The notes under the pieces: generated by a model | What the model was told of the DNA's origin: nothing | What the model saw: only the letters and a program-made list of their open reading frames with translations | Databases searched by the model: none | Program-made: the position numbers and the translations under genes | Assembly: GCA_008373095.1 (NCBI GenBank) | Contig: RQOP01000005.1 | Location: forward strand, 1-63,145 | DNA: 63,145 nt | Direction of reading: 5' to 3' | Origin: SAR202 cluster bacterium | GTDB lineage: Bacteria; Chloroflexota; Dehalococcoidia; Lucifugimonadales; UBA826 | Part shown: piece by piece, positions 20,602-39,888 of the stretch | How positions within the stretch are numbered: position 1 is the stretch's first letter | How the letters are laid out: each line of letters opens with the position of its first letter

Positions 20602-21237
20602 CTAACTGACAAATTCGGAAGGAGATCCATCAAAAACAACCCTACCTCCCTGAAGGGAAATAATTTTGTCCGCATAATGCAAGGCCATATCTATGTCATG
20701 GGTTACGACTAATAAAGTCCTTCCTTCCAAAGAAACTTCTTTAAGCAAACTGTAGAACTCTTCTCTTGAATTTCTATCTACCGAGGACAATGGTTCATCC
20801 ATAATGATCATGTCCTTTTCCTGAGCAATAGCGAAAGCTAACCAAACACGTTGCTTTTCTCCTGCCGAAATATCGGAAAAATTGCGTTCCAACAGGCCTT
20901 CAAGGTGAAATTGTTCCGCCAATGCGTCGAGAATTTCTTGTCGAGAATCACTACCTTTATTATTTTTCTTTATGGCTACTGATATTACTTCCCCTACTGA
21001 AAGAAATGGAGGATCAGGCAAATTTTGCGGCAAATAAGAAATGTCTTTTGGGTCAACTGTGTCAACATTCCCAGAATTAACTTGCAAAATTTTCATGATT
21101 AGCTTGAGAACTGTAGTTTTACCCGACCCGTTGGGCCCAACCAGGCAATAAAAGGAATTAGGAGATATTTCAAATGAAACACCCTGCAATATCTTCAGAT
21201 GCTCAATTTCAACGACCGCATTGGACAAGGTAATCAC
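20602..21237 (-). CDS. ABC transporter ATPase (FepC/BtuD type)
   Basis: GPNGSGKT, ISAGEKQR, IMDEP, VTHD. Confidence 0.93.
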   Translation of the reverse strand: MITLSNAVVEIEHLKILQGVSFEISPNSFYCLVGPNGSGKTTVLKLIMKILQVNSGNVDTVDPKDISYLPQNLPDPPFLSVGEVISVAIKKNNKGSDSRQEILDALAEQFHLEGLLERNFSDISAGEKQRVWLAFAIAQEKDMIIMDEPLSSVDRNSREEFYSLLKEVSLEGRTLLVVTHDIDMALHYADKIISLQGGRVVFDGSPSEFVS

Positions 21238-22187
21238 TACTTATACCTCCAGGCCAAATACATCATAAGCGGAGCTCCCAACATCGTCGTTGCGAGCCCG
21301 ACTGGCAGTTCTATAGGAGCAAACAACAACCTTGCCACCTGGTCCGATAATAAGGTGAGTAGACCTCCAGTAAAAGCGGAAATAAGTATCAATGACACTG
21401 GAGAATTTCCTACAAATCGCCTACCGATATGTGGTGATATCAAGGCAACAAATCCAATAAGACCTCCCGCATATACGGAAGAGCCGGCTAAAGCAGCGGC
21501 AATGGACATTAAATAAATCCGAGTTTTTATTGGGTTTACTCCCAGTGATTTGGCAATATCATCTCCTAAAGTTATCGGCAACAACCTTGAAGAAAAAACA
21601 AGCGAGCCAGCCAAACAAGCAAATAATGAACAGGTTAGAAAATATATTAACTGCCAAGAACTGGCAGAAAAGGAACCAGCCACCAGACCAATCACCTGAG
21701 AGGGAAAAACTCTGCCATAAGAGATGACACTAGTCCCCAAAGAAACCATAAGGGCGCCTACGGCTATCCCCATGATAGCGAATTTCACAGGTGTTAAATT
21801 TCGATTAGAACTCAGTGCAGTAAGAAATAAAGCAACAATCAACGAGCTAGCCATAGCCCCAAGAAATACGCCGTATACCGGAATTGATATCAGGCCAACA
21901 GTAACAGCGGCCATAAATATCACTGCTCCCCCACCTATTCCAAAAAGATTAGGATCTCCTATTGGGCTCCTTGTCGATAGCTGGATTAAAACTCCTGATA
22001 GACCCAAAGAAGCCCCTACTAGGACACTTAATATCACACGGGGAATCCTTATCGACCACACTACCGTCGTCATTACCCCATCATCGGACCTCATCAGCCC
22101 ATTGTAAGTATCCTGAAAACTTAGATCTGAGGGGCCTGCAAAAACCCCTACGATCGCGAAAACAAACGTGGCTGCAACTACAGCCAC
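21237..22187 (-). CDS. FecCD/BtuC-type ABC permease
   Basis: IRIPRVIL, PIGDPNLFGI, AKSLGVN, IGFVALISPH, ELPVG..GAP. Confidence 0.93.
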   Translation of the reverse strand: MAVVAATFVFAIVGVFAGPSDLSFQDTYNGLMRSDDGVMTTVVWSIRIPRVILSVLVGASLGLSGVLIQLSTRSPIGDPNLFGIGGGAVIFMAAVTVGLISIPVYGVFLGAMASSLIVALFLTALSSNRNLTPVKFAIMGIAVGALMVSLGTSVISYGRVFPSQVIGLVAGSFSASSWQLIYFLTCSLFACLAGSLVFSSRLLPITLGDDIAKSLGVNPIKTRIYLMSIAAALAGSSVYAGGLIGFVALISPHIGRRFVGNSPVSLILISAFTGGLLTLLSDQVARLLFAPIELPVGLATTMLGAPLMMYLAWRYK

Positions 22188-22215
22188 GTATGGAAAAGAT
22201 TTTCTTACTAAAAGT

Positions 22216-23313
22216 TTACTCAGCAGACACAGCGTCCTTTAGAAATTCAACAGCCTCTACAATTCTAGGTCCTGGGGACTGTAAAAATAAAGCCACATCA
22301 GCCTCCACCACATTACCTGTTCGGATGGCAGTTAAACCTGCAAAAGGAGGGATTTGCTTAATCGATTCAGACAGTCTAGGAGCCGGTGCTGGTGCCGGTG
22401 TAATTGTTACCAACACATCTGGGTTGGCCATCAAAATAGCTTCTGTGGACATCAAAGCGAAACCAGGAAATGGCCCGGAATCTGGCAATCCAGCCGCCTT
22501 GTTATCCATGCCAAGAGTGGCAGCGATCAAACCTGTATAAGACTCTGGACGGGCTGCATACAAATTCCTATCTTGATCCGATATCAATAATAGAACAGCC
22601 CTGCTGTCGTCTGCCCCTATTGAATCAAGTCTACTTTGGATATCGTCAACTGCTTTTTCAGCGACGGATTCTTTACCAATAATTTTTCCGATCATGGAAA
22701 TGTTGCCGGTAACGTCCGAAACACTTTCTGCCTTCACAGCAACAACTTTCAATCCAGATTGGGCAAATATTGCAGCAAATCTAGCTTGGGTCAAAGCTTC
22801 TATGATGACAAGGTCTGGCTGATTACCTATTATGGTTTCCATTGATGGGTCATATGCACTTCCCACATCTGGCAAACTTTGAACTTCTACAGGGAAATTA
22901 GACGCCCTATCTCTCAAAATTGCTGTCCCTCCGGCTGCATACAGCATCTCTGTAGCTGTTGGACTTATTGATGCTATTTTCTCGGGTATATTTTCGAAGG
23001 TTACTTCTTGTCCGAGAGCATCGATTACCACCACTGCCTCTGCAGCTTCAGATTCTCTAGCTGGAGGTGCAGGGTTTGATACAGGACTGGCTGACATTGC
23101 TGACACCGGTGGAGCTGTAGGCTCAGGTGCAACAGTTGCAACTGCTGGCTTTGTAGGTTCAGGGGCTGCGGCTGGTGCGGGTGCTTTTGCAGGTTCAGAT
23201 GACACCGCCGGTGCGGGTGCTTCTTCTACCTTACTATCAGATTCCGAGCATGCTACAAAAATAAATAAAGATAAAGCAATCAAAGCAAGAGAGAAACGTG
23301 TGTAATTAAGCAA
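22216..23313 (-). CDS. Helical-backbone ABC substrate-binding lipoprotein, BtuF/YvrC-like (cobalamin or Fe-chelate), with Ala/Pro-rich linker
   Basis: Lipobox FVAC; about 60-aa A/P/E linker; ASISPTATEML, LPDVG..PSMETII..QPDLV; C-terminal SPGPRIVEAVEFL typical of BtuF-like proteins. Confidence 0.85.
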   Translation of the reverse strand: MLNYTRFSLALIALSLFIFVACSESDSKVEEAPAPAVSSEPAKAPAPAAAPEPTKPAVATVAPEPTAPPVSAMSASPVSNPAPPARESEAAEAVVVIDALGQEVTFENIPEKIASISPTATEMLYAAGGTAILRDRASNFPVEVQSLPDVGSAYDPSMETIIGNQPDLVIIEALTQARFAAIFAQSGLKVVAVKAESVSDVTGNISMIGKIIGKESVAEKAVDDIQSRLDSIGADDSRAVLLLISDQDRNLYAARPESYTGLIAATLGMDNKAAGLPDSGPFPGFALMSTEAILMANPDVLVTITPAPAPAPRLSESIKQIPPFAGLTAIRTGNVVEADVALFLQSPGPRIVEAVEFLKDAVSAE

Positions 23314-23465: not shown

Positions 23466-23675
23466 AGTCTCCTGGCCTTAGTCCCGCCAATTACTAAGTC
23501 CTAAATGCCCTGAAGTGGGGGCCGGCTAGTCTGAGCGGAAGGAGACCAGGAGACTAAAAGCTGCCAGACTCAAGGATTTCTTGATGATTAACTAAGGTTT
23601 GGTTTCAGCCGAGGAAAAGACTGTTGAGAAGCGGTTATAAGCTCCCAGGTTCCAATTTACCCTCAGAGTCTGGCA
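23466..23675 (-). ncRNA. Candidate tandem structured RNA (two domains closed by 10-bp perfect stems); class unknown
   Basis: TGCCAGACTC 23562-23571 / GAGTCTGGCA 23666-23675 and AGTCTCCTGG 23466-23475 / CCAGGAGACT 23546-23555; internal helices pair better on the minus strand (G-U pairs); each domain is followed by a U-tract on minus. Confidence 0.45.
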
Positions 23676-25121: not shown

Positions 25122-25583
25122 TCAAATATGGGCTAGAATGGCCTTATAATCTGGAATAATCCCAGGATGCTCACCCATCCAGCTATAAACCAGTATCCCG
25201 TCCTGACCTGCAATAAAGACCGCACGATTAGAGCTCCTGTAGTTGGGAAGACCAGCAAGGCCTGTAAAAGAAACTCCAAAAGCATCAATACAATCGAGAT
25301 TGTAATCGCTAATCAAGTCATAACTTATACCGTTCTGATTTGCCCAGGCATTCAATGCAAATGGGGAGTCAGCAGAAATCCCGACCACTTTAACGTTGGA
25401 ATGATTAAATTTATCCAACATATCGCCAATCTGACATAACTCATCAGTACAAACATCTGTAAAAGCACCAGGGAAAAAGGCAAATAGTGTTTTTGTTCCA
25501 ATAAATTCTTTCGAATTTCTTTCCTTATGATGACTGTCAAAAAAAGAGAATTCTGGAATCTTATTTCCTACTTGCAACGGCAT
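25122..25583 (-). CDS. Peroxiredoxin (AhpE/PrxQ-like)
   Basis: FPGAFTDVC (PxxxTxxC) with a second Cys five residues later; GISADS, LISD, NRAVFI. Confidence 0.9.
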   Translation of the reverse strand: MPLQVGNKIPEFSFFDSHHKERNSKEFIGTKTLFAFFPGAFTDVCTDELCQIGDMLDKFNHSNVKVVGISADSPFALNAWANQNGISYDLISDYNLDCIDAFGVSFTGLAGLPNYRSSNRAVFIAGQDGILVYSWMGEHPGIIPDYKAILAHI

Positions 25584-25623: not shown

Positions 25624-25953
25624 TTATAAAACGTTGTAATACCAAAGAATATATATATTAACTGCAGTACACAGGACACCGACCAAAACGGACAATCCAA
25701 TAGGCACCAAGCTATGGAAACCCCATTTGTTTGACATAGATGCCGATTGACAAACAAACAGAAATGTCGCGATCACCCCAAGACCCCACATTGACATTGC
25801 TACCCACAGTAGAATTTGCGTATTGGAGTGGAACCAAGAATGACCTTCTATAAGGTTATCTCTGTAATAAAAACTTGCGTGCAAAAAAATGGAAGACGCA
25901 ATAAAAGGAAAACAACCAATAAGACCTTTTGTAATTGATTTGTCTTTTACCAC
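25624..25953 (-). CDS. Hypothetical membrane protein
   Basis: 109-aa ORF with three hydrophobic segments; no recognised motif. Confidence 0.45.
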   Translation of the reverse strand: MVKDKSITKGLIGCFPFIASSIFLHASFYYRDNLIEGHSWFHSNTQILLWVAMSMWGLGVIATFLFVCQSASMSNKWGFHSLVPIGLSVLVGVLCTAVNIYILWYYNVL

Positions 25954-26093
25954 TTCTGCAGGAATATTTATCGCAGCACCTACTATTTTCTGTAAGTTTT
26001 TCTATTGTGAAGCCTACAAATTTCTGTCGTTTCTTTGGCTGTGTGTTACCTTTTACTGAGAAGACCCTATTTTCCCAGAAGAGTTATAAAAGT

Positions 26094-26669
26094 TTGAACT
26101 ATCTCATCATATCAGCCATTTGGGCGATCACATCTTATTTCATTGGAACCGTATCAATTGGAGATTGCATAGCTAAATTTAAAAAAGTAGATATTCGCTC
26201 ACGCGGCACAGGTAATCCCGGGGCTTCGAATATATATGCGGAAATCGGACCTGTATATGGAGTATCTGTCTTCTTTATTGATATCGCGAAAGGCTTAATC
26301 ATCACCCTCCCCGTTGTTTTGCTGGAATACCCAATCTGGATTGCAACTATTGGGATTATATTTTTCCTTCTCGGACATATGGTCATAAATCCATGGGGTA
26401 AACCTGGTGGTATTGGTATGGCTACTACCATGGGGGCAGGTATAGTTCTTCTTCCTATGGGAGCTTTAATAGCTGTTATCCCCGCCTTCCTGATACTAGT
26501 TATCACTAGGAGGCCATCCTATACAGGAGTTTTCGCATTTATTGCTACGATAATTGCTGGCTGGTTAGTCCATTTAGACCTTTTAGCAACCACCTCTGTA
26601 CTCATATTAGCTGGAGCAGTATTGGTTAAATTTCAATTCCAATATCGAGACCTAGAAACCCACAAATGA
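26094..26669 (+). CDS. plsY: Glycerol-3-phosphate acyltransferase PlsY family (start probably TTG 26094)
   Basis: DIRSRGTGNPGASN, IDIAKG, LGH..PW..GGIGMATTMG. Confidence 0.85.
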   Translation: MNYLIISAIWAITSYFIGTVSIGDCIAKFKKVDIRSRGTGNPGASNIYAEIGPVYGVSVFFIDIAKGLIITLPVVLLEYPIWIATIGIIFFLLGHMVINPWGKPGGIGMATTMGAGIVLLPMGALIAVIPAFLILVITRRPSYTGVFAFIATIIAGWLVHLDLLATTSVLILAGAVLVKFQFQYRDLETHK

Positions 26670-27104
26670 CACCAAAACCCAAATACTTATCACAAGCTTG
26701 GAAGTCCACAGAATAGTCCTAATCCAGTTAGTATTTACCAATTTTTCGGTATACATGATTTGATTTTCAGGAAATTCCAGCCGTTGGTGATAGGGGATTT
26801 GAAGAAATGCTGTGGAAACCCAAATCACACACACCAAAGTGGTATTGATTACCAAGAGCCCAACTGCAACATCCGGGATAAATACTAATAAGATCAAAGC
26901 AATACCTGCTTCAAGGGTCATAGCCAAGGCAACTAATGGTGTGATTTTTTTTACATGGCCGGAGTGGTATTTTTGAAAATCACCAGCATCTACATAGGAA
27001 AATAAAGGATAGGAAACTAACTGAATTAGCCATATTAGCCCAACCATAAAAGAAGAAACCACCAAATTAAGAATCACGGCGAATAAAAAAATTTGCTCTG
27101 GCAC
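26652..27104 (-). CDS. Conserved 4-TM membrane protein
   Basis: GLIWLIQLVSYPLF, H..ITPLV..MTLE, STAFLQIPYH, LVNTNWIRT.LW pattern; four TM segments. Confidence 0.7.
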   Translation of the reverse strand: MPEQIFLFAVILNLVVSSFMVGLIWLIQLVSYPLFSYVDAGDFQKYHSGHVKKITPLVALAMTLEAGIALILLVFIPDVAVGLLVINTTLVCVIWVSTAFLQIPYHQRLEFPENQIMYTEKLVNTNWIRTILWTSKLVISIWVLVSFVGF

Positions 27105-27180
27105 ATTCCTTCCTAAAACAATTGCAAAATAATTTCAAACGTCGATTTAATTTCGCTTAGGCACGTCTTTGATTTTCGAT

Positions 27181-28071
27181 TCATTTTGAAAATGACATTA
27201 AACTATTAACTGATGTCCCGAGCGCTTCAGCCAGTTTAAATAGTGCAGCCATAGTTAAATTTTGCTTACCGTTCTCTACCAAGCTTATATATGCTCTATC
27301 CACTCCTGCGAGGGTAGCTAATTCACCTTGATTTAGTCCCTTTGACCTTCGTATTTCCAAAACTTTCCCTCCAATTCCAGAAAGCATCTCCTGCAAGGAT
27401 AGATTTCCGGACCCAATCCCCATTGCCTCGTGTAAAACAGTTAGCCCTGTCGCAGAGTTATCAACGATTGCAGCGCCACCAACTTGATCATTAAACCCCT
27501 TAAAGGCCGGTCCTCCCAAGATAATGTACGGAGGGTTTTCTATGGACTCTATGATATTCACCGAGGACTCTACGCTAGGAATGTTAGTAGGAAGAACTAC
27601 TGACAAAGCAACTACATCCACCTCTATTTCTGATAGATATTTAGCAAGGTCTTCTCCCGGAGTATCAACCCCAATATATTCAACATCCCACCCGTCTAGA
27701 AAAAGCAGATTTGCAAACATTTTTGCGCCCATCCAGTGGTTTTCTCCCGAAGGAGAGGTCACAAGAGCACGGAGACCGTTATTAGATAGTCTCATGGAAT
27801 TTTCAACGACCATATTTATCAAGCTGTCAACGATTTGGCTGGCATGATGCTCATGAGCGATAGTAATCCTCCCTTCATGCCATAATTCCCCTATCTCTAC
27901 CATCGCTGGAGTGATTACTGAATTATAAATAGCCACTGGAGTGCAGTTGTATCTCAAAGCCTCATCTATGACAGCAACACTCCCCGTCCGATCCACAGCG
28001 GTCAAATTATTTAACAATCTACCCTTGAAACGATTTAGCAGAACGAAATCATCACTCTTACGACTCGTCAT
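27181..28071 (-). CDS. Cobalamin-binding (CarH/LitR photoreceptor-type) regulator with C-terminal XRE helix-turn-helix
   Basis: WHEGRITIAHEH = W-x9-EH; GENHWMG = ExHxxG; IGVDTP, VALSV, ILGG of the B12 Rossmann domain; C-terminal IRRSKGLNQGELATLAGVDRAYISLVENGKQN..LFKLAEALG = HTH_XRE. ATG 28071 overlaps the upstream stop. Confidence 0.9.
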   Translation of the reverse strand: MTSRKSDDFVLLNRFKGRLLNNLTAVDRTGSVAVIDEALRYNCTPVAIYNSVITPAMVEIGELWHEGRITIAHEHHASQIVDSLINMVVENSMRLSNNGLRALVTSPSGENHWMGAKMFANLLFLDGWDVEYIGVDTPGEDLAKYLSEIEVDVVALSVVLPTNIPSVESSVNIIESIENPPYIILGGPAFKGFNDQVGGAAIVDNSATGLTVLHEAMGIGSGNLSLQEMLSGIGGKVLEIRRSKGLNQGELATLAGVDRAYISLVENGKQNLTMAALFKLAEALGTSVNSLMSFSK

Positions 28072-29518
28072 ATTCACTACCCCCAAAACGCATTTGAATA
28101 ACTTTTCTTCTGTAGGAAAATATCCTTATCAACATATTTTTGATCAAATATTTGTGAACAACTCTTCCTATAACCCAACCAGGCACCCTGTAAAAAACTT
28201 TGTCTTCCATCCGACAATTTGAATCCCCGTCAGCCACGATGCGATGCTGATGCCACCAAAGACTATATGGTCCTTTTTTTTGGAAATCTATAAATACTTC
28301 ATCCGGTGACCACTTCACTATCTCCGTTCTCCACTTCATCGGAAGAATTCCAAGTTTGATTTTGTATTCAAATTCAGAGCCTTCAATTATCTCAGGTGGA
28401 GACTCTGTTATATGAAATCCCATCCATTTCGGAGTTGCCAATCCCAAATTAAGAGGAGAGGAAAAGAAGTTAAATGCAGCCTCAGAATTAACCGCAAGCC
28501 TCACGGAAGTTTCAATTCTATAGTCGGCCTGAGAAAGCTTCTTTGAATATTTCAGAGAAGTATCAAAGGTCTCTTTATTTGAATCGACTTTAACAACACT
28601 TACTTTTTCTGGTGTACATTCTTCAGTGAGAGCATTTTCCAGTTCGTCATACTTGAACTTGAAGTTCCTTTGTAGCAAAGCTTCTGGTAGAGCGTTCTGA
28701 CTGTTGGTTAGCACCTTCTCTCCCTCTGCAAAAACCAATTTCAAGCAGATGGAAGGTAATCCAATAACAATTTTTGCTCCCAATATCTTAGCCAAACAGT
28801 TAGAAAAAGGCTTACTCCTGACTGGATTGGGAGCAGTACAATTTAAGGGCCCTGATATACCATCATCGTTGATTGCGAGATCGATAATCCTCAAAAGATC
28901 AAAATAATGAATCCAAGGGACCCATTGGCGCCCATCTCCCACATAACTACCAATTCCCATCTCAAAAGGAAAAGACAACTGATTTAAAAATCCACTTTCT
29001 CTTCCAAGGACTACCCCCAGCCGCAACGTACAGACCCTAGTACCAAAATTTTGAGCCTCCAAAGCTGCCTTTTCCCAAGAATCACACAACTCGGAAAGGT
29101 AACCTTGGCCAATTCCGGACTCTTCAGTGATTTTTTCATCGCCTCTATCGCCATAGTAGCCAACAGCACTGGCTGAAATTAGAACAGCTGGTGGAAGTTC
29201 ACAGTTTTCCATAATCGAGACAAGTCGCTCTGTCACACCCACCCTACTGTCGTAAAATTCTCTCTTTTTTGAATCCGACCACCTCACTGGCGCCAAAGGG
29301 CGTCCAGTCAAATTAACAATGACATCTGCATCCTCAAAAGCACTTGCCAAGTCATCATCAGATTGTCCAAACGCGAGAATGCTGACACCTGCACCCAGTT
29401 GCTCTGCAGCCTTTTCAGGATTCCTCACGATAGCCGTCACAGCATGACCTTTACCTCGTAGAAATGAAACTAACTCACTTCCAATAAATCCCGTAGCACC
29501 CGCGATAATTACATTCAT
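28058..29518 (-). CDS. TIGR01777-family NAD-dependent epimerase fused to C-terminal SRPBCC/cyclase-like domain
   Basis: AGATGFIG, VNLTG, ISASAVGYYG, LRLGVVL, WVPWIH, NCTAP; C-terminal FFSSPLNL..TP, KWRTEI..FIDFQKKGPYSLWWHQH. Confidence 0.9.
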   Translation of the reverse strand: MNVIIAGATGFIGSELVSFLRGKGHAVTAIVRNPEKAAEQLGAGVSILAFGQSDDDLASAFEDADVIVNLTGRPLAPVRWSDSKKREFYDSRVGVTERLVSIMENCELPPAVLISASAVGYYGDRGDEKITEESGIGQGYLSELCDSWEKAALEAQNFGTRVCTLRLGVVLGRESGFLNQLSFPFEMGIGSYVGDGRQWVPWIHYFDLLRIIDLAINDDGISGPLNCTAPNPVRSKPFSNCLAKILGAKIVIGLPSICLKLVFAEGEKVLTNSQNALPEALLQRNFKFKYDELENALTEECTPEKVSVVKVDSNKETFDTSLKYSKKLSQADYRIETSVRLAVNSEAAFNFFSSPLNLGLATPKWMGFHITESPPEIIEGSEFEYKIKLGILPMKWRTEIVKWSPDEVFIDFQKKGPYSLWWHQHRIVADGDSNCRMEDKVFYRVPGWVIGRVVHKYLIKNMLIRIFSYRRKVIQMRFGGSEYDES

Positions 29519-29590
29519 CAGTGATAGGTTCCCTGAGCATCTCAATACACAAAACGTAAGAGTTACTTAATGCACTTTTTAAACTATTTC

Positions 29591-29619
29591 TTGTACTATA
29601 ACACAATAATGTGTATTAT
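29591..29619 (+). promoter_or_regulatory. Sigma70-type promoter of the lipid-modification operon
   Basis: TTGTAC, 17 nt, TATTAT; palindrome ATAAT-GTGT-ATTAT (29606-29619) overlaps the -10. Confidence 0.5.
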
Positions 29620-29658
29620 GGAACATGTGGTCTCAAAAAATTTAGGAGTCTCTTGAGT

Positions 29659-30183
29659 ATGACAAATGTCTTAGTATTTTTCCTCGTCAACCTAGTAGGG
29701 GGGGTTGCTGTTTTAGGTTCATACGTTGTCGGGCTTTACATTTATCCTGACTTCAGAAATGCCTTGTGGGGGGGAGTTGCGGGGAGTTGGAAATCCCTTT
29801 TCACTGTTTCTATGTTTTTCGCCGCAGCAGGATACCTAATATTCTGTTATTCAATGACAATTTCTGGCGCAGCGGATAAATCATCGTTTTTGGGTGGGCA
29901 CACTTTTTCCATACTTGCTGCATTTTTCTTGTTTTCGGCTTCAATCTGGATGCCAGCAACGCTGAAATATCTTGCGACCGACGATAATTTATGGTGGATA
30001 TTATCAGTTATTTCTCTATGGATCACTGCTGCTTCCTTGTGTTTGCTAACAGTGTCTTTTGGCCTATCTAACTACGATGGTATTGGAACATTACAATTTT
30101 CATTAACATTAGTGGGAATTATTTGGATAACATTCCATTGCCTTGTATTTGACGCCATTATCTGGGTGACCAAGTTCCATTAG
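29659..30183 (+). CDS. Hypothetical multi-pass membrane protein
   Basis: AGGAG RBS 10 nt before ATG 29659; five hydrophobic segments; LWGGV motif. Confidence 0.75.
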   Translation: MTNVLVFFLVNLVGGVAVLGSYVVGLYIYPDFRNALWGGVAGSWKSLFTVSMFFAAAGYLIFCYSMTISGAADKSSFLGGHTFSILAAFFLFSASIWMPATLKYLATDDNLWWILSVISLWITAASLCLLTVSFGLSNYDGIGTLQFSLTLVGIIWITFHCLVFDAIIWVTKFH

Positions 30184-30217
30184 AGGTAAAAAAACCAAAG
30201 GGGAATCAGGTGTAAAT

Positions 30218-31303
30218 ATGGATCCAACGTATAAGTCAAAGATGACAACCTATGTAAACGAGCAGATACCAAAATTAAAAACAGTAAATAATGACGACCT
30301 GGAGTCAATGTTTGAAAATTTCTCCCCTGACCAGATAGTTGAAACAAGTGGGCTTACCGCAGAAGAAGTCGTGGATTCATTTAGGCTGTCACTAATAACA
30401 GAATCACTTACCGAGCAATATTCAGAAACTTACAAATTGGGAGCCAAAATGTTTGGTGCCGAATGGCTCAATGATTATGTAGTTGGTTTTTGGGAACCAG
30501 ATGAAAATGGGCATGCAGACCCATTTAAAAACATACTCTTGGATTTCGGAGTGGATCAGAAAGTGATCACCGATGAAATAAATGAAGCGAAGCACACTAC
30601 AGATTATAAAATACATCATGAGGCGGGGTTCTCACCGATAGCTTTAACCACATATGGGATGATACAGGAGTGCATTACCGACTACTGGTATGAATTGCAA
30701 AGAGATTTTTTCCCAAAGTCCAGTAACACAAACAAAGTAATCAGCAAAGTCAAAGGCAGAGAAGCCCTCCACACGGTGCAGTTTAGAGATCTAACCGCAT
30801 TTCAACTAGAGGCGGACCCTTCCTTGCTGCCCGAAATCATCCATTCCACAATAAATTTTTCGATGCCCTCAAACCACATACCAGTTGTGCAGGACATAGA
30901 GGCCAAGACTCAAGAATGGTTACCTAAAATGGACGGAGATGTAACTGAATTATTGAGGCGCATAATATTTCATATAAACGGTTCTCTAAATGACAAAACC
31001 CGTCTAGGACAACTTCTTACAGAATACGCATCTGCCAGTGAGAGTAGATTTTTGTCTCTAGTTCCTAACCATGTTCTCTCTGGTGCGATATCACACGTCA
31101 AAGGTGGTTATGGGCTAGTTGGTGAAATAATTCTCGAACAACTTGGACTCACTGCTAGTGAGCCAGATATGCCTAAAGATTTTAATGAATCAATCCAATT
31201 CAAAATTAAGTCAATACTGAAGCGATGGGCCATTAAACGAATGGACTTGGAAGGATTACTGCATTCAAACAATCTAATAGCTTCCACACAACAAAATGAC
31301 TGA
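30218..31303 (+). CDS. Ferritin-like di-iron protein, acyl-ACP desaturase-like
   Basis: WEPDENGH, YGMIQECIT and GREALH align with the WTAEENRH / FQERAT / DEKRH ligand pattern of soluble desaturases. Confidence 0.7.
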   Translation: MDPTYKSKMTTYVNEQIPKLKTVNNDDLESMFENFSPDQIVETSGLTAEEVVDSFRLSLITESLTEQYSETYKLGAKMFGAEWLNDYVVGFWEPDENGHADPFKNILLDFGVDQKVITDEINEAKHTTDYKIHHEAGFSPIALTTYGMIQECITDYWYELQRDFFPKSSNTNKVISKVKGREALHTVQFRDLTAFQLEADPSLLPEIIHSTINFSMPSNHIPVVQDIEAKTQEWLPKMDGDVTELLRRIIFHINGSLNDKTRLGQLLTEYASASESRFLSLVPNHVLSGAISHVKGGYGLVGEIILEQLGLTASEPDMPKDFNESIQFKIKSILKRWAIKRMDLEGLLHSNNLIASTQQND

Positions 31304-32489
31304 ATTGACAGAAAGTCTAGGCAAAAGATTGTCTCCTCTAATTCTACCTAGATTTAGAGGAATTGGCGTTTTAGTTGAAACCCCCGACGGTGCAGTGCAC
31401 CGATTGGACAATCATGACCCAGAAAATGTTCACGCTATCACCATAAAAAAATGGAGTTTCTTCTATGACCTGCTAGTAGGATATGACCTCGGGTTTGCAG
31501 AGTCCTACATAAATGAAAAATGGGAATGCACTAACCTACCAGATCTTTTCAAGCATCTATCAAAATCAGCACCTGACAACGCTATATCTAGATTATCAAA
31601 ATATTTCCCTAAAAAAATTAAATCTAGAATCTGGCAACGAGTCAGGTCATCAAATACTATTAAATGGGCAAAAAGAAACATAGAAGAACATTACGATCTA
31701 AGCAATGAGTTTTTTAGCTCCTTTTTAGACCCGTCTATGACATATTCATCTGGAATATATGACTCCCCTGATGAAGACCTATCAGTAGCTCAAAACAGAA
31801 AATTAGAAACCTTACTTGAAAATAGCGCAATCAATGAGGGTGACCAGATATTAGATATCGGATGTGGTTGGGGAAGTTTAGTGTTTAAAGCAGCCTCTGA
31901 ATACAACTGCGGGGTTGCAGGGGTTACCTTATCCAGAAACCAATATAAATACACTTCAAGCCTTTTGAAGAACCACAAGCTTTCCAATAAGACAAAAATA
32001 ATGTTGATGGATTACAGGGAAATAGAAAATAAGTTTGACCATATTTTTTCTATTGAAATGCTTGAAGCCGTTGGGCACAAAGGAATAAATGAATTCTTCA
32101 AAAAATGTGCTCAGATTTTAAACAAAAATGGCACCATACAGGTGCAAGTAATTACTATTCCTGACGAACATTACGATTCATACAGAAAAAACTGTGACTT
32201 CATACAAAAATACATATTCCCCGGCGGTATGCTCCCTTCATTAGGAATAATCCAAAAATCTGCTCAAGAAAATGGTTTTGAAATATTAAAAATGAGGTCT
32301 CTGGGAAGCGATTATGTCAAAACCTTAAGAGCGTGGAGAAATAACTTATATTCGAATCGCCAAAATTGGAAGGACATTGGTTTTGACAATTCCGACTACA
32401 GAAAATTTGAATACTACTTCAGCTATTGTGAAGGTGGATTTGACTCAGGACATATAGACAACTACCAAATATCATTTAAGCGTCTTTAG
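31296..32489 (+). CDS. CFA-synthase-family SAM methyltransferase (UfaM-like)
   Basis: LGFAESYI, HYDLSNEFF, MTYSS, LDIGCGWGS, SIEMLEAVG, FIQKYIFPGG, YFSYCEGGF. Confidence 0.92.
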   Translation: MTELTESLGKRLSPLILPRFRGIGVLVETPDGAVHRLDNHDPENVHAITIKKWSFFYDLLVGYDLGFAESYINEKWECTNLPDLFKHLSKSAPDNAISRLSKYFPKKIKSRIWQRVRSSNTIKWAKRNIEEHYDLSNEFFSSFLDPSMTYSSGIYDSPDEDLSVAQNRKLETLLENSAINEGDQILDIGCGWGSLVFKAASEYNCGVAGVTLSRNQYKYTSSLLKNHKLSNKTKIMLMDYREIENKFDHIFSIEMLEAVGHKGINEFFKKCAQILNKNGTIQVQVITIPDEHYDSYRKNCDFIQKYIFPGGMLPSLGIIQKSAQENGFEILKMRSLGSDYVKTLRAWRNNLYSNRQNWKDIGFDNSDYRKFEYYFSYCEGGFDSGHIDNYQISFKRL

Positions 32490-32491
32490 TT

Positions 32492-33526
32492 ATGTGGTAC
32501 GAATCATTAGCTTACAGCGGATTAATACCAGACATTTTAATAAGAGCTCTCATCCGATACAAATTGGATAAATATGAAGAATACGTAGGAAATCTTTCTC
32601 CAAATTCAATACGCCAAATCAAAGATGAATTCATCACTATAGCCTCCCAGGGGCCGATAGCAATCGAAACACAAGCAGCCAATTCTCAACATTACGAATT
32701 CCCCACTACATTTTATTCTTCCATTCTTGGTCCCACACTAAAGTACAGTGGATCTATGTGGAATTCAGATGCAAATAATCTGGAAACAGCAGACTTAGAA
32801 ACCTTGAAAATCTACACTTCACGGGCGCAAATACAAAACGGACAATCAGTGCTCGATATCGGGTGCGGATGGGGATCATTGTCGTTGTATATTGGCAAAA
32901 CATTCAATGACTGCAAGGTGACAGCCTTAACAAACTCAACGACACAACAAGAATATTTAAATGCTCAGATACAAAAGCACAACCTGGTCAACGTAAGTGT
33001 TACCAAAATTAACATTAACGACTTTCAACCAGTCGATAAATACGACCGGGCTTTATCTATAGAAATGTTTGAACACACAAGAAACACAAAACTACTCATG
33101 GAAAAGATTAATGGTTGGTTGAACCATGAAGGAAAATTGTTTATACAAGTTTTCTCCCATTCCACGTACCCGCAGTTCTTTGACGACTATTCAGACTCTT
33201 GGATGTCACGCAATTTTTTCAGTGGGGGGATGATGCCATATTCCGGATTCCATCACGAAATTTCCAAGTGTTTAAACCTAGCAGAAATATGGGAAGAATC
33301 TGGTATTAACTACCATAGGACTTTGGAAGCATGGCTTAATAATTTGGATTCCTCAAAAAAAGAATTGGTTGGGTCATTGGAAATACCAGATCAATCCACC
33401 TCACCCAAATTAGCAATAAACAAGTTTCGCATATTTCTTCTGTTTTGCTCAGAATTATTCAACCATAATCAGGGTATGTCCTGGAAAATAATGAATTATC
33501 TTTTTACCAAACAGGAGACTCGCTAA
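32492..33526 (+). CDS. Second CFA/coclaurine-N-methyltransferase-like SAM methyltransferase
   Basis: AANSQHYE..FY..LG..LKYS, LDIGCGWGSL, SIEMFEH, WMSRNFFSGG. Confidence 0.88.
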   Translation: MWYESLAYSGLIPDILIRALIRYKLDKYEEYVGNLSPNSIRQIKDEFITIASQGPIAIETQAANSQHYEFPTTFYSSILGPTLKYSGSMWNSDANNLETADLETLKIYTSRAQIQNGQSVLDIGCGWGSLSLYIGKTFNDCKVTALTNSTTQQEYLNAQIQKHNLVNVSVTKININDFQPVDKYDRALSIEMFEHTRNTKLLMEKINGWLNHEGKLFIQVFSHSTYPQFFDDYSDSWMSRNFFSGGMMPYSGFHHEISKCLNLAEIWEESGINYHRTLEAWLNNLDSSKKELVGSLEIPDQSTSPKLAINKFRIFLLFCSELFNHNQGMSWKIMNYLFTKQETR

Positions 33527-33528
33527 AG

Positions 33529-34785
33529 TTGGAAATCGGCATTGTTGGCAGCGGTATTTCAGGTATATCTGCAGCTTACCACCTTCAAAACCAACATAAA
33601 ATCACTCTTTTTGAAAGAGAAGACAGTTTAGGAGGCCATACTAACAGCATCGCTGTCTCCGATGATGAGGGCCAATCCTTCAACATAGATACAGGATTCA
33701 TAGTATTCAATGACAGAAACTATAAACATTTTTCAAAATTCATAGAAGAATTGGAGGTACCTACAGTGGAGACAGACATGTCTTTCTCTTATACAGATTC
33801 TTCTAAATCCATTGGATACGCTGGAACTTCGAATGGCTTGTTTCCTACCGTTAAATCTTTCTTAAATCCGAGACATACATGGCGTCTGTGGAACATCTAT
33901 AAATACTCCAAATTATTAGACGCTAACTCCGATAAATTTAGTGACCGCAGTATCTCTATATATGATGCTTTGAAGGGATTCCAATGTCCTGATGATGTGA
34001 TTGACTCATACTTTACACCGATAGCATCCGCTATTTGGTCTTGCAATCAAAAAGATTCCCAAAAAATACCTGCCAACGCGTACGTAAATTTCTTTCAGAA
34101 TCACGGTTTATTATCCATATCAGAAAGACCTGCTTGGTTCACAATAAAAGGCGGTAGCAAACAATACCTGAAAAAATTTGAAGAAACCTTTAAGGGAAAT
34201 ATTAAAAAAAGGAACAAAGTAGTTTCTATTATTGAAAATTCCTCAAAAGTGGAGGTTCGTTGCCTAAACGAACCAGCTATTTCATTTGACGCAGTTATCT
34301 TAGCCACTCATGCAGATATCTCGGCGAAAATACATACCAATACTCCTGACTCCAAAATGGAGGTGCTGAATCAATATAAATATTCAGATAATTTTGCAGT
34401 TCTTCATAAGGATGTCACTTATATGCCCTCAAATGAAAAAGTGTGGGCTTCCTGGAACGTGAAGAGGCAAAATCAAGCAAACCAAATATCATCTTTTGAA
34501 GTCACTTACAATATGAATCGGCTGCAACGGCTTACATCAAAAACAAACTTTCTTGTCACACTAAACCCGACTCAGCCTCCAGACCCTAACATGACTTTAT
34601 ACTCTACGAAGTACACGCATCCAATTCTTTCTTTTGACTGTTCTGACAACGAAAAACATTTCGACATATTGAATTCAACAGGTAGGGTTTTCTTTTGTGG
34701 GGCATATTTAGGTTATGGCTTTCATGAAGATGGGTTCGTATCTGGCATGAAAGCAGCTCAATCAATCAACAAATTGCCAGGGTAA
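33529..34785 (+). CDS. FAD-dependent amine-oxidase-fold protein (UfaD/RSP_1091-like)
   Basis: GSGISG, GGHTN, IDTGFIVFNDRNY, WASWN, TYNMNRLQ, CGAYLGYGFHEDG. Confidence 0.9.
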   Translation: MEIGIVGSGISGISAAYHLQNQHKITLFEREDSLGGHTNSIAVSDDEGQSFNIDTGFIVFNDRNYKHFSKFIEELEVPTVETDMSFSYTDSSKSIGYAGTSNGLFPTVKSFLNPRHTWRLWNIYKYSKLLDANSDKFSDRSISIYDALKGFQCPDDVIDSYFTPIASAIWSCNQKDSQKIPANAYVNFFQNHGLLSISERPAWFTIKGGSKQYLKKFEETFKGNIKKRNKVVSIIENSSKVEVRCLNEPAISFDAVILATHADISAKIHTNTPDSKMEVLNQYKYSDNFAVLHKDVTYMPSNEKVWASWNVKRQNQANQISSFEVTYNMNRLQRLTSKTNFLVTLNPTQPPDPNMTLYSTKYTHPILSFDCSDNEKHFDILNSTGRVFFCGAYLGYGFHEDGFVSGMKAAQSINKLPG

Positions 34786-34789
34786 TAAA

Positions 34790-35596
34790 TTGAGATCCTA
34801 TATTGTGTCTGGAATTTTAGATCATCAAAGGTACGGTCCGTCTTCACATTCATTCAGATTTAAACACACCATGTTGATGTTAAACACTGACCACCTAGAA
34901 TCCCCAAAAAAGCTATGTTCACTTATTTCTATTGAGAAAACAGGTGTGTTATCGATCAATTTTAAAAATATGATCGATGCAACAAACAAACCTATCGGAG
35001 AAAAAATTCAACGTCTCTTTAAACTACAAGGCAATCAATCCAAATCTTCTAACTCTTTCGCAGTCACTACCCCTTCAGTTCTCGGATACAGCTTCAACCC
35101 AGCATCCTTCTACTTTGTAATAAATGATGAAGATAAGATAGAAAATTGTGCGGTAGAAGTTCATAACACTTTCAATGAATCACACCTTTATATATTAAAT
35201 TCACCTACAGCAGGTTCATCTAAATCAAGTAAATATACCCATGAAAAACAATTCCATGTGTCACCTTTTATAGGAAGGGAAGGCAATTATGAATTCGAAT
35301 TTGAATTAACAGCAACTTATCTGAAGATTAACATAACCCTTTTCCACAACAATCAGCCAATAATATCTACAAGATACCTCGGTGAATTGATACCTTTGAC
35401 CAGGAAAAATCTATTCTTGAACATTAGGCAATTGATATTTACTGTCCTACTAACAGAGTCCAGAATATTGAAACAAGCATATAAATTGCATTTTCGGAAA
35501 AAACTTCCTCTTTTCAATAAACCAATCCCCTTAGCTATGACAAAAATTGCTCTTTCTAGGGGTTTTATATCCAAACTGAAGATACCTTTCGTATGA
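34790..35596 (+). CDS. DUF1365 protein (UfaO/RSP_1090-like)
   Basis: H.RYGP..HSF, P.VLGYSFNPASFY, EVHNTF.E.H.Y, KQFHVSPF. Confidence 0.9.
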   Translation: MRSYIVSGILDHQRYGPSSHSFRFKHTMLMLNTDHLESPKKLCSLISIEKTGVLSINFKNMIDATNKPIGEKIQRLFKLQGNQSKSSNSFAVTTPSVLGYSFNPASFYFVINDEDKIENCAVEVHNTFNESHLYILNSPTAGSSKSSKYTHEKQFHVSPFIGREGNYEFEFELTATYLKINITLFHNNQPIISTRYLGELIPLTRKNLFLNIRQLIFTVLLTESRILKQAYKLHFRKKLPLFNKPIPLAMTKIALSRGFISKLKIPFV

Positions 35597-36354
35597 AAGT
35601 GAATCCAATTAAGTTAACTACTAAATACATTTTCGTATTTCTGATAGTTATTGGTTTAAGTTCCATATTTATCAAAACTGCATCGGCGCACATACCTTTC
35701 ATATCGAACGATAACCACAACAGTGCTCAAAGTCCCTTAGTTGTTTATGACATAGCTGTATCAAAGGTTATCTATCAAAAATTGACCGATGATTCACCAG
35801 AATCATGGATATCTTTCAAAGCCGATCAAGGCGAAGTTCTGTATTTCAATTTAGGAGTACCTCTTTTGGAAGAACTAAAAGATTTCAGACCCTCCATAGG
35901 ACTTCTAACCCCATCATCTCAAACGCTTTCTGTAAATTCCTTAAAAGAATCCGAGGTATTTCCGACACTTGATATTACCGACCCAAAAACCTTTTATGAA
36001 CCCTTCACAAAGACGAATTCTTGGACCTTTACGGAACACAAATTCGATATTCCAACAACTGGCAACTATTCCCTAGTCACCTACTCTCCCAAAAAACAAG
36101 TGGGAAAAGTCTGGGTTTCTATTGGTAAAGAAGAAAGATTTGGCCCTAGTGACTGGATCACTATCCCAGCCAAGATACCGGAAATCCGTAAATTCCATTC
36201 CTCAAACATAAAACCGTCAATAGATGAATCCCAAAATAGCAACGGCACAAGCTATTGGGTGTTCTTAACTGGTGGAATAGGCATATTTTGCCTAATGCTA
36301 TTTTTAATAAGAAGGTTTTTCATCAAGACTTTTCGTACCTTAAAGAAAAGTTAA
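35593..36354 (+). CDS. Exported hypothetical protein with C-terminal TM anchor
   Basis: Signal peptide ending ASA-HIP; FYEPFT motif; C-terminal TM. Confidence 0.75.
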   Translation: MKVNPIKLTTKYIFVFLIVIGLSSIFIKTASAHIPFISNDNHNSAQSPLVVYDIAVSKVIYQKLTDDSPESWISFKADQGEVLYFNLGVPLLEELKDFRPSIGLLTPSSQTLSVNSLKESEVFPTLDITDPKTFYEPFTKTNSWTFTEHKFDIPTTGNYSLVTYSPKKQVGKVWVSIGKEERFGPSDWITIPAKIPEIRKFHSSNIKPSIDESQNSNGTSYWVFLTGGIGIFCLMLFLIRRFFIKTFRTLKKS

Positions 36355-37330: not shown

Positions 37331-38434
37331 ATGAAATTCGAGTGGGGAATATTACAAAACGAAATAGATGATGGCCATGGAGGCGTGGCCTCTTTACTTA
37401 AGCGAATGGATTCCTCACTCAAGGGAGAAGGACTTCCACTCGAAGGGTTTGAGTTTCTCAATTCAGCCCAGGAAATGCTGCGTATCACTAGAGAAATTGA
37501 AGATGCGGCCCTTATGGCGGGCCCAGACTCCACGGTTTTCGTAGGTTTTCAAAATATAGATAAACTTCAGAATGAGTACGATAGATATCGAGATCTGATT
37601 TCCAATGGAGTTACTATTCACGCATTTGGTACAGGGGATTCAGATTCATGGGCTATGGATGCCTGTACGTCCTGGAATCCTTTGTCCAAATCAACCTCCA
37701 AGGTGGAAAACCAGTGGATGCTGGTTGCAAAAGACCCAACCCCAATAGCGTTTATAGGATGGGAAGTTTCAAGGGGAATATTTGGGGAAGGTAAATTATC
37801 AGACCCGGGCAAGCTATTTGAAGGCTTTGCCTCCTCTGATTCAAGAATAGTAGATAGTTTAATTCAGCATTTAGAAGCAACAAGAATCGAAAATTCCCAA
37901 AAAAATGACTCATCCTCAAAAAACCTCAAAGAGAAGACATCTCCCTACAGCAAAATAATGCTGGTTACTGAGGATAAATCAAATACAAGCGATGGAGGGA
38001 AAATACTCGGCTATGAAGACTCTCTGGTCAACTTTTGCCAGGAAAATGGAGCTGAAGCAATACTCTATGATATTTCAGCATGCTCTTACTTCGTTAAACC
38101 CGTTCCCGCTGAATCGGATAATTTATTGAAAAATGTAATTGACACGGAAACAGTAGAGAACCTAGGCCGGCTTAACCTCGCTGCACAAGGGAGAGTTTTT
38201 GAAAATGCCGGTTTGAAAACTTCTTATTTGTTACCGGAAAAAAATGGGTTTAAACATTTGATTGAAAGAGCTACCCAAGAAAAAATAGATCTTATAATCC
38301 TTGACGACTACTATAGTTCACCTAGACTGATGGATCGAATAGCGGGTAATTCCCTATCCAATATAGATCAGAGCGCTACTGTTGAGGTTATGCTTTATAA
38401 GGAATTGCAATCGCAGTCAATATCAGTAGCATGA
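37331..38434 (+). CDS. DICT sensory domain fused to USP-like C-terminal domain
   Basis: ITREIEDAA..VFVGFQNIDKL..EYDRY..L..GVTIHAFG..ENQWMLV..IAFIGWE (DICT pattern); C-terminal LIERATQEKIDLIIL (USP-like). Confidence 0.7.
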   Translation: MKFEWGILQNEIDDGHGGVASLLKRMDSSLKGEGLPLEGFEFLNSAQEMLRITREIEDAALMAGPDSTVFVGFQNIDKLQNEYDRYRDLISNGVTIHAFGTGDSDSWAMDACTSWNPLSKSTSKVENQWMLVAKDPTPIAFIGWEVSRGIFGEGKLSDPGKLFEGFASSDSRIVDSLIQHLEATRIENSQKNDSSSKNLKEKTSPYSKIMLVTEDKSNTSDGGKILGYEDSLVNFCQENGAEAILYDISACSYFVKPVPAESDNLLKNVIDTETVENLGRLNLAAQGRVFENAGLKTSYLLPEKNGFKHLIERATQEKIDLIILDDYYSSPRLMDRIAGNSLSNIDQSATVEVMLYKELQSQSISVA

Positions 38435-38454: not shown

Positions 38455-39888
38455 ATGAATATATTAATCGCAGGTGCCAGCGGATATGTAGGCACACTAC
38501 TAATAAAAAAGCTGTCAAATGAAAATCACAACATCTCATGTGTTTCTAGAAATCCTGAGATGATTGAGAGCAGGTTTCCTCAGTTGAACTTGAAAACTCA
38601 CAAAGGAGACCTGCTTTCTCTGAAAGAAAATCATAAAGCTTTCGATAACATCGATGTCGCCTACTATCTTGTACATTCTCTTAGTGCCGGTAAGGACTTC
38701 CCTCTCCAGGAACTTAAATGTGCAGAAAACTTTATCAAAGCAGCAAAAGCGGCCGGAATACCCAAAGTCATCTATCTAGGAGGATTGGCTAACGAGCAAT
38801 CTCAACTTTCCAGGCATTTAAAGAGCAGGCTTGAAGTGGGAGCAATGCTTAGATCCACAGAAGTAGTGTGTGTTGAACTTCAAGCTTCGGTGATAATCGG
38901 TTCTGGCAGTCTCTCATACGAAATAATGAAAAATTTAGTAGAAAGACTTCCAATTATGCTAACTCCTAAATGGGTCTCATCTCTGTCTCAGCCCATTTGG
39001 ATCGAAGATGCCCTTGAATATCTCACACAGTCAGCCACAGTGGAATTCAAAAGGAGTACTGTAATTCAAATAGGAGGACCAAACCAGGTTACTTACAAAC
39101 AATTAATGCAGATATATGCAAATCTGAGAAACCTAAAAAGAATCATGATATCCGTACCTGTGTTAACTCCAAACCTATCAAGCAAATGGCTAGGTTTAGT
39201 TACTCCAGTCTATGCAAGGGTCGGTAAAAAACTAATCGAAAGCTTGAAGAATGACAGCATAGTCACTAAACCAGTCGACAGAGATTTATTTAGCATAATT
39301 CCTTCTAGCATTGAGACTGCCATCGCAAACACTATGAAAGTCGAACAAGATGGCCCCAGTGAATCACGTTGGTACAATTCAGTTTCATCCTCCACTAAAG
39401 TAATAGATAAAGAAGATGACACGTCATATAGATACTTGTTAAGAGATGTAAGGGAAATTATAGTGGCCGTAGGACCCATGGAGGCCTTTAAACCAATAAA
39501 CCAAATCGGTGGCTCCAATGGATGGTACTATGCGAATTTTTTATGGAAAATAAGAGGGTGGATTGATTTACTAGCAGGGGGGGTTGGTATACGTCGAACA
39601 AGAGTAAATCAACACACCTATGTTATTGGCGATACCCTCGACTGGTGGAGAATTTCTGACCACATACCAAATGAACTCGTAATTCTAGATGCAGAAATGA
39701 AACTTCCTGGAAAAGCATGGCTCAAATTCGAAATCGTTCCATCCCAAAAAGGGAGCTTGATAAGGCAGACTGCGGGAATGGAAACAAATAACTTAATGGG
39801 CCTTTTATACTGGTACGGACTATTCCCACTGCATTCCATCATATTCAGAGGAATGCTCAACGCAATCGGGAAAAGAGCCTCAGCTTAG
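38455..39888 (+). CDS. NAD(P)-binding SDR/epimerase with DUF2867 (YbjT-like)
   Basis: AGASGYVG, YYLVHS, IYLGGL, HLKSRLEVG, IIGSGS.SYE, GG.NGWYY..LWKIRG..D..GG, AEMKLPG.AWL. Confidence 0.9.
   Translation: MNILIAGASGYVGTLLIKKLSNENHNISCVSRNPEMIESRFPQLNLKTHKGDLLSLKENHKAFDNIDVAYYLVHSLSAGKDFPLQELKCAENFIKAAKAAGIPKVIYLGGLANEQSQLSRHLKSRLEVGAMLRSTEVVCVELQASVIIGSGSLSYEIMKNLVERLPIMLTPKWVSSLSQPIWIEDALEYLTQSATVEFKRSTVIQIGGPNQVTYKQLMQIYANLRNLKRIMISVPVLTPNLSSKWLGLVTPVYARVGKKLIESLKNDSIVTKPVDRDLFSIIPSSIETAIANTMKVEQDGPSESRWYNSVSSSTKVIDKEDDTSYRYLLRDVREIIVAVGPMEAFKPINQIGGSNGWYYANFLWKIRGWIDLLAGGVGIRRTRVNQHTYVIGDTLDWWRISDHIPNELVILDAEMKLPGKAWLKFEIVPSQKGSLIRQTAGMETNNLMGLLYWYGLFPLHSIIFRGMLNAIGKRASA

Follow-up and report, generated by a model that had tools for sequence, protein, structure and literature searches.

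A predicted cobalamin-dependent light-responsive repressor with a C-terminal XRE domain in marine SAR202 Chloroflexota

Introduction

SAR202 is a dominant uncultured lineage of the ocean. In a contig of a SAR202 cluster bacterium, one gene encodes a cobalamin-binding module of the kind found in B12-based photoreceptors, followed at its C-terminus by a helix-turn-helix (HTH) domain of the XRE type. To our knowledge, all experimentally studied B12 photoreceptor transcription factors carry an N-terminal MerR domain instead. The locus raises the question whether the cobalamin light switch can operate with another DNA-binding domain at the opposite end of the protein, and which genes such a regulator would control. 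The original prediction for this gene read it as a CarH-type sensor with reversed domain order and as a distinct class of light-switchable transcription factor. We analysed the gene, here named CBD-XRE, in a window of 63,145 nucleotides (contig RQOP01000005.1) together with its relatives. The results support this interpretation, with cobalamin binding, light response and DNA binding being predictions drawn from sequence, and we regard it as probable that CBD-XRE is an adenosylcobalamin (AdoCbl)-dependent, light-released and autoregulated local repressor of two divergent operons.

Domain architecture and cofactor motifs

The gene and its domains are located as follows.

27181-28071, minus strand: CBD-XRE gene, comprising a four-helix bundle, a Rossmann B12-binding domain, a linker and a C-terminal XRE HTH (Pfam and AlphaFold2 model)
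27814-28020, minus strand: B12-binding_2 four-helix bundle, residues 18-86, containing G61xxW64, His65 and E74H75 (Pfam, regular expression)
27484-27771, minus strand: Rossmann-type B12-binding domain, residues 101-196, containing G109-E-N-H112-xx-G115, G134xxxP138, S157xV and G186G187 (Pfam, regular expression)
27208-27357, minus strand: HTH_3 (XRE/Cro-C1 type) DNA-binding domain, residues 239-288 (Pfam)

The open reading frame encodes 296 amino acids and starts with the ATG at 28071, the same methionine with which homologues begin. All three proposed domains exceeded the Pfam gathering scores, with 52.7 bits for B12-binding_2 (E 5e-14), 55.5 bits for B12-binding (E 6e-15) and 49.8 bits, against a gathering score of 23, for HTH_3 (E 3.5e-13). 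Both cofactor signatures that had been noted for this gene were recovered in full by regular expressions on the translation: Wx9EH as W64-HEGRITIAH-E74H75 (27847-27882), with His65 adjoining W64, and ExHxxG as E110-N-H112-WM-G115 (27727-27744). The latter is part of a complete classical motif, E110xH112xxG115-x41-S157xV159-x26-G186G187. Wx9EH and ExHx2Gx41SxV/Tx22-27GG are the motifs by which the Elías-Arnanz group defines CarH homologues (PMC8156234). Also complete is the four-element signature of light-responsive cobalamin-binding domains, GxxW, EH, GxxH and GxxxP (SignatureFinder; Yu et al. 2024, PMC11796333), which is present as G61ELW64, E74H75, G109ENH112 and G134VDTP138.

An AlphaFold2 model built on an alignment of 38 sequences reached a mean pLDDT of 91.5. 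It consists of the four-helix bundle, the Rossmann domain, a linker of lower confidence around residues 218-226 and a five-helix HTH domain. Together with the Pfam score, the latter places the C-terminus in the XRE/Cro-C1 (HTH_3) family.

Relationship to known protein families

The best matches of the sensor domain among sequences in the PDB were the photocobilin 8j2w (5e-15), TtCarH (3e-14), CtMerR (8jbs) and LitR (3whp), followed with weaker support by a methyltransferase corrinoid protein (6e-10) and methionine synthase MetH (1e-6). Likewise, Foldseek ranked photocobilins (8j2w) first, then CtMerR (8jbs; target-normalised TM 0.83) and the TtCarH sensor domains (5c8a/8c31; 0.80), with MetH behind; CBD-XRE and the TtCarH sensor domain share about 26% sequence identity. 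The top NCBIfam model was CarH, covering only model positions 86-264, which represent the cobalamin-binding part. As all three rankings favour them, proven photoreceptor domains are the group to which the sensor half is closest, both in sequence and in predicted fold. CtMerR, SasPcob and AbDPcob (SignatureFinder-validated; photocobilins), which are top matches by sequence and fold, share the four-element signature with CBD-XRE; CBD-XRE lacks the biliverdin-binding globin domain of the photocobilins and has no enzyme output.

CarH and class I LitR of Myxococcus, Thermus, Bacillus and Streptomyces are AdoCbl photoreceptor repressors of the MerR family. They have in common with CBD-XRE the two-subdomain cobalamin-binding domain, Wx9EH, the His beside the Trp and ExHx2Gx41SxVx26GG, as well as similar kinds of photoprotective target genes and, as far as predicted, a logic of repression in the dark and release in the light. 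While their MerR winged helix is N-terminal, CBD-XRE has its XRE/HTH_3 domain at the C-terminus, and a Pfam search of the protein returned no MerR-family match, leaving HTH_3 at residues 239-288 as the sole DNA-binding domain. CBD-XRE is thus not a member of the CarH/LitR family, because it has no MerR domain and its domain order is reversed; its score with the CarH equivalog model (81.3 bits) also falls below the cut-off of 400.

Two further assignments were rejected. The scores for methyltransferase corrinoid proteins of the MtbC/MtaC type (41.7 bits against 215 for pyl_corrinoid, 37.5 against 350 for MtbC) are far below threshold, and no methyltransferase genes fitting such a role were found nearby. 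Stand-alone cobalamin-binding proteins such as AerR use the domain in light-dependent gene control, as proposed here for CBD-XRE; however, AerR has no DNA-binding domain and works through CrtJ, whereas CBD-XRE has its own C-terminal HTH_3.

The closest solved relatives of the HTH domain, with E values from 2e-8 to 1e-4, are restriction-modification controller proteins such as C.AhdI (2e-8) and C.BclI. These proteins, C.Esp1396I and other XRE/Cro-C1 repressors act on palindromic operators that overlie promoters. Controller proteins are single-domain proteins of about 80 amino acids without a sensor, whereas the HTH of CBD-XRE is the output of a cofactor-binding sensor of 220 amino acids.

Distribution, conservation and novelty of the family

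More than 110 clusters at 90% identity share the same three Pfam domains in a word-indexed search. They stem from SAR202, Dehalococcoidia and Chloroflexi metagenome-assembled genomes (MAGs) and are named in their sources only as 'helix-turn-helix domain-containing protein' or 'methanogenic corrinoid protein MtbC1/DNA-binding XRE family transcriptional regulator'. When 1.84 billion representatives were searched with a profile, 2,715 clusters at 50% identity passed E <= 1e-30. Nearly all of the top 150 were full-length matches of about 290-330 amino acids, so that the family comprises at least 150 clusters at this level of identity. The scan of species-representative genomes yielded 172 relatives, most of them from Dehalococcoidia or SAR202, with other bins labelled Bdellovibrionota, delta-proteobacterium, Fraserbacteria, Latescibacterota and Bipolaricaulia. 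All 172 carrier genomes are MAGs or single-cell genomes. The CBD-XRE family is therefore large and uncultured.

Throughout the alignment of 38 relatives (30-88% identity), no substitution occurs at W64, E74, H112 or P138, and at least 90% of the sequences retain H75. The helix-3 motif of the HTH, DRAYISLVENGKQN, and the recognition helix DRxYIS..E.G.QN are near-invariant in the family. Among 144 full-length representatives of the 50% clusters, 122 keep Wx9EH and 101 the strict form [ED]xHxxG. His65, which varies in the 38-sequence alignment, is present in 49 of the 144, and a bis-His step may consequently not be general.

Searches of the literature for a CarH or B12 photoreceptor with an XRE or HTH_3 domain found no paper that characterises this fusion, nor any experimental study of a family member. 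Yu et al. 2024 mention in general terms that light-responsive domains can carry a fused HTH domain at either end; they tested MerR-type and photocobilin proteins only and no HTH_3 fusion (PMC11796333). What had been proposed as a distinct class thus stands as a distinct, uncharacterised architecture, although not as one unseen before, since this mining study mentions such fusions generically.

Operon structure and transcription

The genetic elements around CBD-XRE are the following.

28058-29518, minus strand: first operon gene, a TIGR01777/YfcH-type SDR (Epimerase + DUF1731) with a C-terminal extension that has no assigned family
26652-27104, minus strand: third operon gene, a 150-amino-acid membrane protein without a family match
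29659-36354, plus strand: divergent operon of seven genes, presumed to be co-regulated
29519-29658: divergent control region of 140 nt between the two operons
29591-29620: 30-nt block conserved in relatives
29609-29626: candidate operator, an imperfect palindrome ATGTGT-ATTATG-GAACAT centred on the plus-strand -10 box

CBD-XRE is the second gene of a minus-strand operon (26652-29518), between the SDR and the membrane protein. The overlap of 14 nt with the upstream gene, on which translational coupling had been suggested, is real, as the SDR gene ends at 28058 and the ATG of CBD-XRE lies at 28071. Near-identical copies of the locus occur in many marine metagenomes, and at least 20 metatranscriptomes contain it. 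When contigs of four RNA runs were placed on the region, two of them (27828-28178 and 27799-28287) bridged the junction between SDR and regulator, and contig X27 (26704-28016) bridged the junction between regulator and membrane-protein gene, which supports co-transcription and the earlier assignment of the gene to an operon. RNA contigs also cover the divergent operon. The stretch 29587-29630, which spans the conserved block, was crossed by no contig of the four RNA runs. This gap argues that the signal derives from RNA and that the block is an untranscribed promoter-operator core. At 29586 and 29631, where contigs end, the two predicted promoters would be expected to start transcription, bearing in mind that the end of a contig is not the same as a mapped 5' end.

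The divergent operon encodes, in this order, a membrane protein of 175 amino acids, a 361-amino-acid protein of unknown function, two CMAS/UfaM-like methyltransferases, an amine-oxidase-type flavoprotein, a DUF1365 protein and a 253-amino-acid protein of unknown function. The first two had no Pfam or NCBIfam match. By its gene content, the operon is of the furan-fatty-acid/singlet-oxygen type, and it is presumably co-regulated with the CBD-XRE operon. In Pseudomonas, LitR controls genes for an SDR, an FAD oxidoreductase, the furan-fatty-acid synthase UfaM, hypothetical proteins and photolyase (PMC9758184); the UfaM-like methyltransferases, flavoprotein, DUF1365 protein and SDR of the window are of the types that LitR controls there.

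Just downstream of the regulator operon lie a BCP/PrxQ-type thiol peroxidase gene (25122-25583, minus strand) and a PlsY-like acyltransferase gene (25935-26669, plus strand), both of which are also kept in the SAR202 relatives L001 and L002. Beyond the divergent operon, the window contains genes for a DICT-domain protein (37331-38434) and an SDR+DUF2867 protein (38455-39888).

Gene neighbourhood and co-occurrence with photolyase

Open reading frames were called in 84 fetched loci (L numbers) and their products clustered, with neighbours counted over 79 loci. The arrangement of SDR and regulator opposite methyltransferase, flavoprotein and DUF1365 genes recurs in some 18 SAR202 loci with identities as low as 39%, and CMAS, amine-oxidase and DUF1365 genes are still found near a regulator of 35% identity in a bin labelled Fraserbacteria (L021). 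The 150-amino-acid membrane protein gene is conserved downstream of the regulator in 9 loci. Neighbours of photo-oxidative type were present in 35 of the 79 loci. In distant clades, they include a photolyase near the regulator (L026, L032, L037, L065) or divergent from it (L046), and heliorhodopsin with a DUF1722/YbgA-type gene in L004. An ERG4/DUF1295-like reductase lies near the regulator in twelve loci. Also in distant clades, DICT-USP genes accompany CBD-XRE in L024, L026, L032 and L037, and SDR+DUF2867 genes, which likewise count among the photo-oxidative neighbours, do so in eight loci (L004, L024, L026, L032, L037, L045, L065, L073). This suggests a wider light-response gene set.

Co-occurrence was analysed in 151 evenly drawn genomes of the same order. 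CBD-XRE was present in 23 of them, which represent 17 of the 88 genera, and no genome had more than one copy. The gene occurred in 10 of the 12 genomes with a photolyase above the cut-off compared to 13 of the 139 photolyase-negative genomes (Fisher 5e-8) and in 15 of 26 DUF1365-positive genomes (1e-8); these p-values overstate the case, since the tests ignore shared ancestry. The ten genomes with both photolyase and CBD-XRE fall in seven genera. One genome of the same genus as the host (G094, 93% complete) has neither CBD-XRE nor photolyase nor DUF1365. Gain and loss of the light-response set seem to affect all of its genes together.

Other clades show different surroundings. In ten loci on Dehalococcoidia chromosomes (L003, L027-L029, L031, L034, L039, L041, L042, L044), cobT and cobS, sometimes with cobU, directly follow CBD-XRE, with a DUF378 gene in divergent orientation. 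Here, salvage of the cobalamin lower ligand may be linked to the B12-binding regulator. This clade counts against our preferred reading insofar as it suits the sensing of B12 status as well as that of light: CBD-XRE could be a light-independent sensor for which cobalamin is a co-repressor or inducer, and hence a protein counterpart of the cobalamin riboswitch. In line with this, such a riboswitch was not detected in the window, as Rfam gave no match at the gathering threshold or at E <= 1, including the leader 23466-23675. However, none of the target genes in the window is connected with B12 metabolism, CBD-XRE and photolyase tend to occur together, and the protein carries the Wx9EH cap and the full light-responsive signature, both of which are missing from light-insensitive cobalamin-binding domains (PMC8156234, PMC11796333). 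Moreover, in a cell exposed to sunlight, AdoCbl held by the protein would be photolabile anyway. We therefore consider a pure B12-status sensor unlikely and retain a light-released repressor as the preferred reading.

A connection of the Peripla_BP_2-FecCD-ABC transporter operon (20602-23313, minus strand) to B12 supply through a riboswitch was also rejected; with no Rfam match even at E <= 1, the leader is not a recognisable cobalamin riboswitch.

In 15 loci (L035, L036, L038, L040, L043, L047, L051, L053, L056, L057, L059-L061, L063, L068), CBD-XRE is followed by an AcrB-type RND transporter of about 1035 amino acids and, in some, then by an RNase III-like gene. In freshwater bins labelled Bdellovibrionota or delta-proteobacterium (L058, L066, L072, L074-L076, L079, L082-L084), CBD-XRE is divergent from the gene for a membrane protein with a DnaJ domain, and cmoB and apaG lie downstream.

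Control region and candidate operator

The DNA that had been proposed as target, 29519-29658, proved to be a true intergenic region, delimited by the ATG of the SDR gene at 29518 and that of the divergent membrane-protein gene at 29659. Within it, the block 29591-29620 is nearly identical in a relative with 49% identity and can be recognised throughout the clade. Two overlapping promoters that face each other can be read in it: a predicted plus-strand promoter with the -35 box TTGTAC (29591-29596), a spacer of 17 nt and the -10 box TATTAT (29614-29619), and a predicted minus-strand promoter with the extended -10 element TGT-TATAGT (29603-29595).

The candidate operator lies in AT-rich promoter DNA, where short palindromes are common. 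Perfect palindromes occupy the corresponding position in relatives, with ATGTGT-TATGAT-ACACAT for L013/L014 and CATGTA-CTATAA-TACATG for L020/L023. In other clades the element is 20 bp long: the perfect ATGTTG-N8-CAACAT in the GC-rich L004, TGTTG-TCAANACT-CAACA in L069, L071 and L073, and ATGTTGTATATTNATAACAT in the cobT clade. Exact ATGT-N12-ACAT was found in 12 of 74 distinct upstream regions compared to 0.5 expected from shuffles, a count that is inflated by relatedness. The spacings N9 and N10 are also enriched upstream of family members, and other spacings are not. Spacing differs by clade, with N10 in the window and N12 elsewhere, despite the near-invariant recognition helix. Several loci of the cobT and RND-pump clades apparently have a second similar site about 31 bp away. 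Two dimers of controller proteins bind adjacent sites cooperatively, and such binding would resemble these paired sites. The freshwater bins have a different conserved upstream element, which is ATCACGTGAT-like and lies beside TGGTATCC.

A weight matrix of the 30-nt block found its sole match in the 1.95-Mb genome at this locus (score 38; next 14.9; shuffle maxima 16-19). As there is no second site, CBD-XRE looks like a local regulator. A wider regulon was rejected and nothing beyond the two divergent operons can be claimed, because the matrix finds only the local site and the core ATGT-N10/12-ACAT occurs at chance frequency genome-wide (about 33 occurrences). Neither the matrix nor the palindrome core gave a convincing operator-like site before the photolyase gene of the host genome.

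A possible second operator, TTGT-N8-ACAA (29591-29606), was left tentative, as its spacing varies in relatives and it overlaps promoter hexamers. The TGTAC repeats in the control region resemble the Pseudomonas LitR operator TGTACA-N12-GGTATA. We treat this likeness as coincidental, since the CarH direct-repeat pattern nAnnTnnACAn does not fit the region and the DNA-binding domain differs. While the CarH operator consists of tandem 11-bp direct repeats, that predicted for CBD-XRE is an inverted repeat.

The position of the palindrome also bears on the direction of regulation. CBD-XRE could instead be a light-dependent activator or anti-repressor, with the light or the dark form recruiting RNA polymerase or titrating another factor in the manner of AerR and CrtJ; some XRE-family controller proteins, the closest solved relatives of the HTH, indeed both activate and repress. 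Yet the conserved palindrome sits on a -10 box and between promoter elements and thereby occupies a repressor position, and CBD-XRE, unlike AerR, has a DNA-binding domain of its own. This possibility is accordingly quite improbable, and repression is the direction we propose.

Proposed mechanism and implications

The host genome (1.95 Mb, 94% complete) encodes one photolyase (contig C98), one further B12-binding protein and a PduO-type adenosyltransferase, and can thus make AdoCbl. Architecture, motifs, predicted fold, co-transcription, the conserved control block and the conserved light-related gene context are observations; for cofactor binding, photochemistry, oligomeric switch, operator and direction of regulation, we infer the following course. 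In the dark, AdoCbl would be held between the four-helix bundle, with W64, E74 and H75 as cap, and the Rossmann domain, with H112 as lower ligand. Bound AdoCbl would promote oligomerisation and thereby place two or four HTH domains on one or more palindromic sites inside 29591-29626. The bound protein would cover the -10 boxes of the face-to-face promoters and keep both the SDR-regulator-membrane operon and the furan-fatty-acid-type operon off. Near-UV to green light would then cleave the Co-C bond, after which His65 may become the upper ligand in a bis-His state. Breakup of the oligomer would lower the affinity for DNA and switch both operons on. Autoregulation would supply new protein, and reloading with AdoCbl from the PduO-type adenosyltransferase would restore repression in the dark.

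The least probable alternative is a B12-independent regulator similar to CarA, in which the fold is an oligomerisation or partner module and light is perceived by a different sensor such as the DICT protein (37331-38434) or a singlet-oxygen pathway: CarA and class II LitR have lost B12 dependence (PMC8156234, PMC9758184) and a DICT-USP gene recurs near family members, but CarA has no Wx9EH and class II LitR no Rossmann domain, whereas CBD-XRE keeps all cofactor-contacting motifs, most of them invariant across the 38 relatives.

On balance, and with more reservation than for the single locus, we incline to regard CBD-XRE proteins as a widespread, uncharacterised class of one-component AdoCbl photoreceptor repressors. 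They would transfer the CarH logic of a light-broken oligomer to an XRE domain whose binding sites are palindromes such as ATGTTG-N8-CAACAT, in many cases paired. In the marine SAR202 Chloroflexota, which are abundant, they would act as the main switch by which light induces the photoprotection of lipids; sister clades may tie cobalamin salvage or efflux to light. If this is true, the light switch built on cobalamin would prove transferable to other DNA-binding scaffolds and to another order of domains. Optogenetics would gain a compact repressor that responds to green light and has a palindromic operator, and there would be a first handle on light sensing and membrane protection in SAR202. 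The matter concerns photobiology, optogenetics and marine microbial ecology. The interest is tempered in that the modularity of the sensor domain is already accepted and the fusion type is listed, albeit untested, in the mining study.

Apart from these genes, the window contains a tmRNA gene at 7825-8173 on the plus strand (Rfam RF00023, 166.6 bits).
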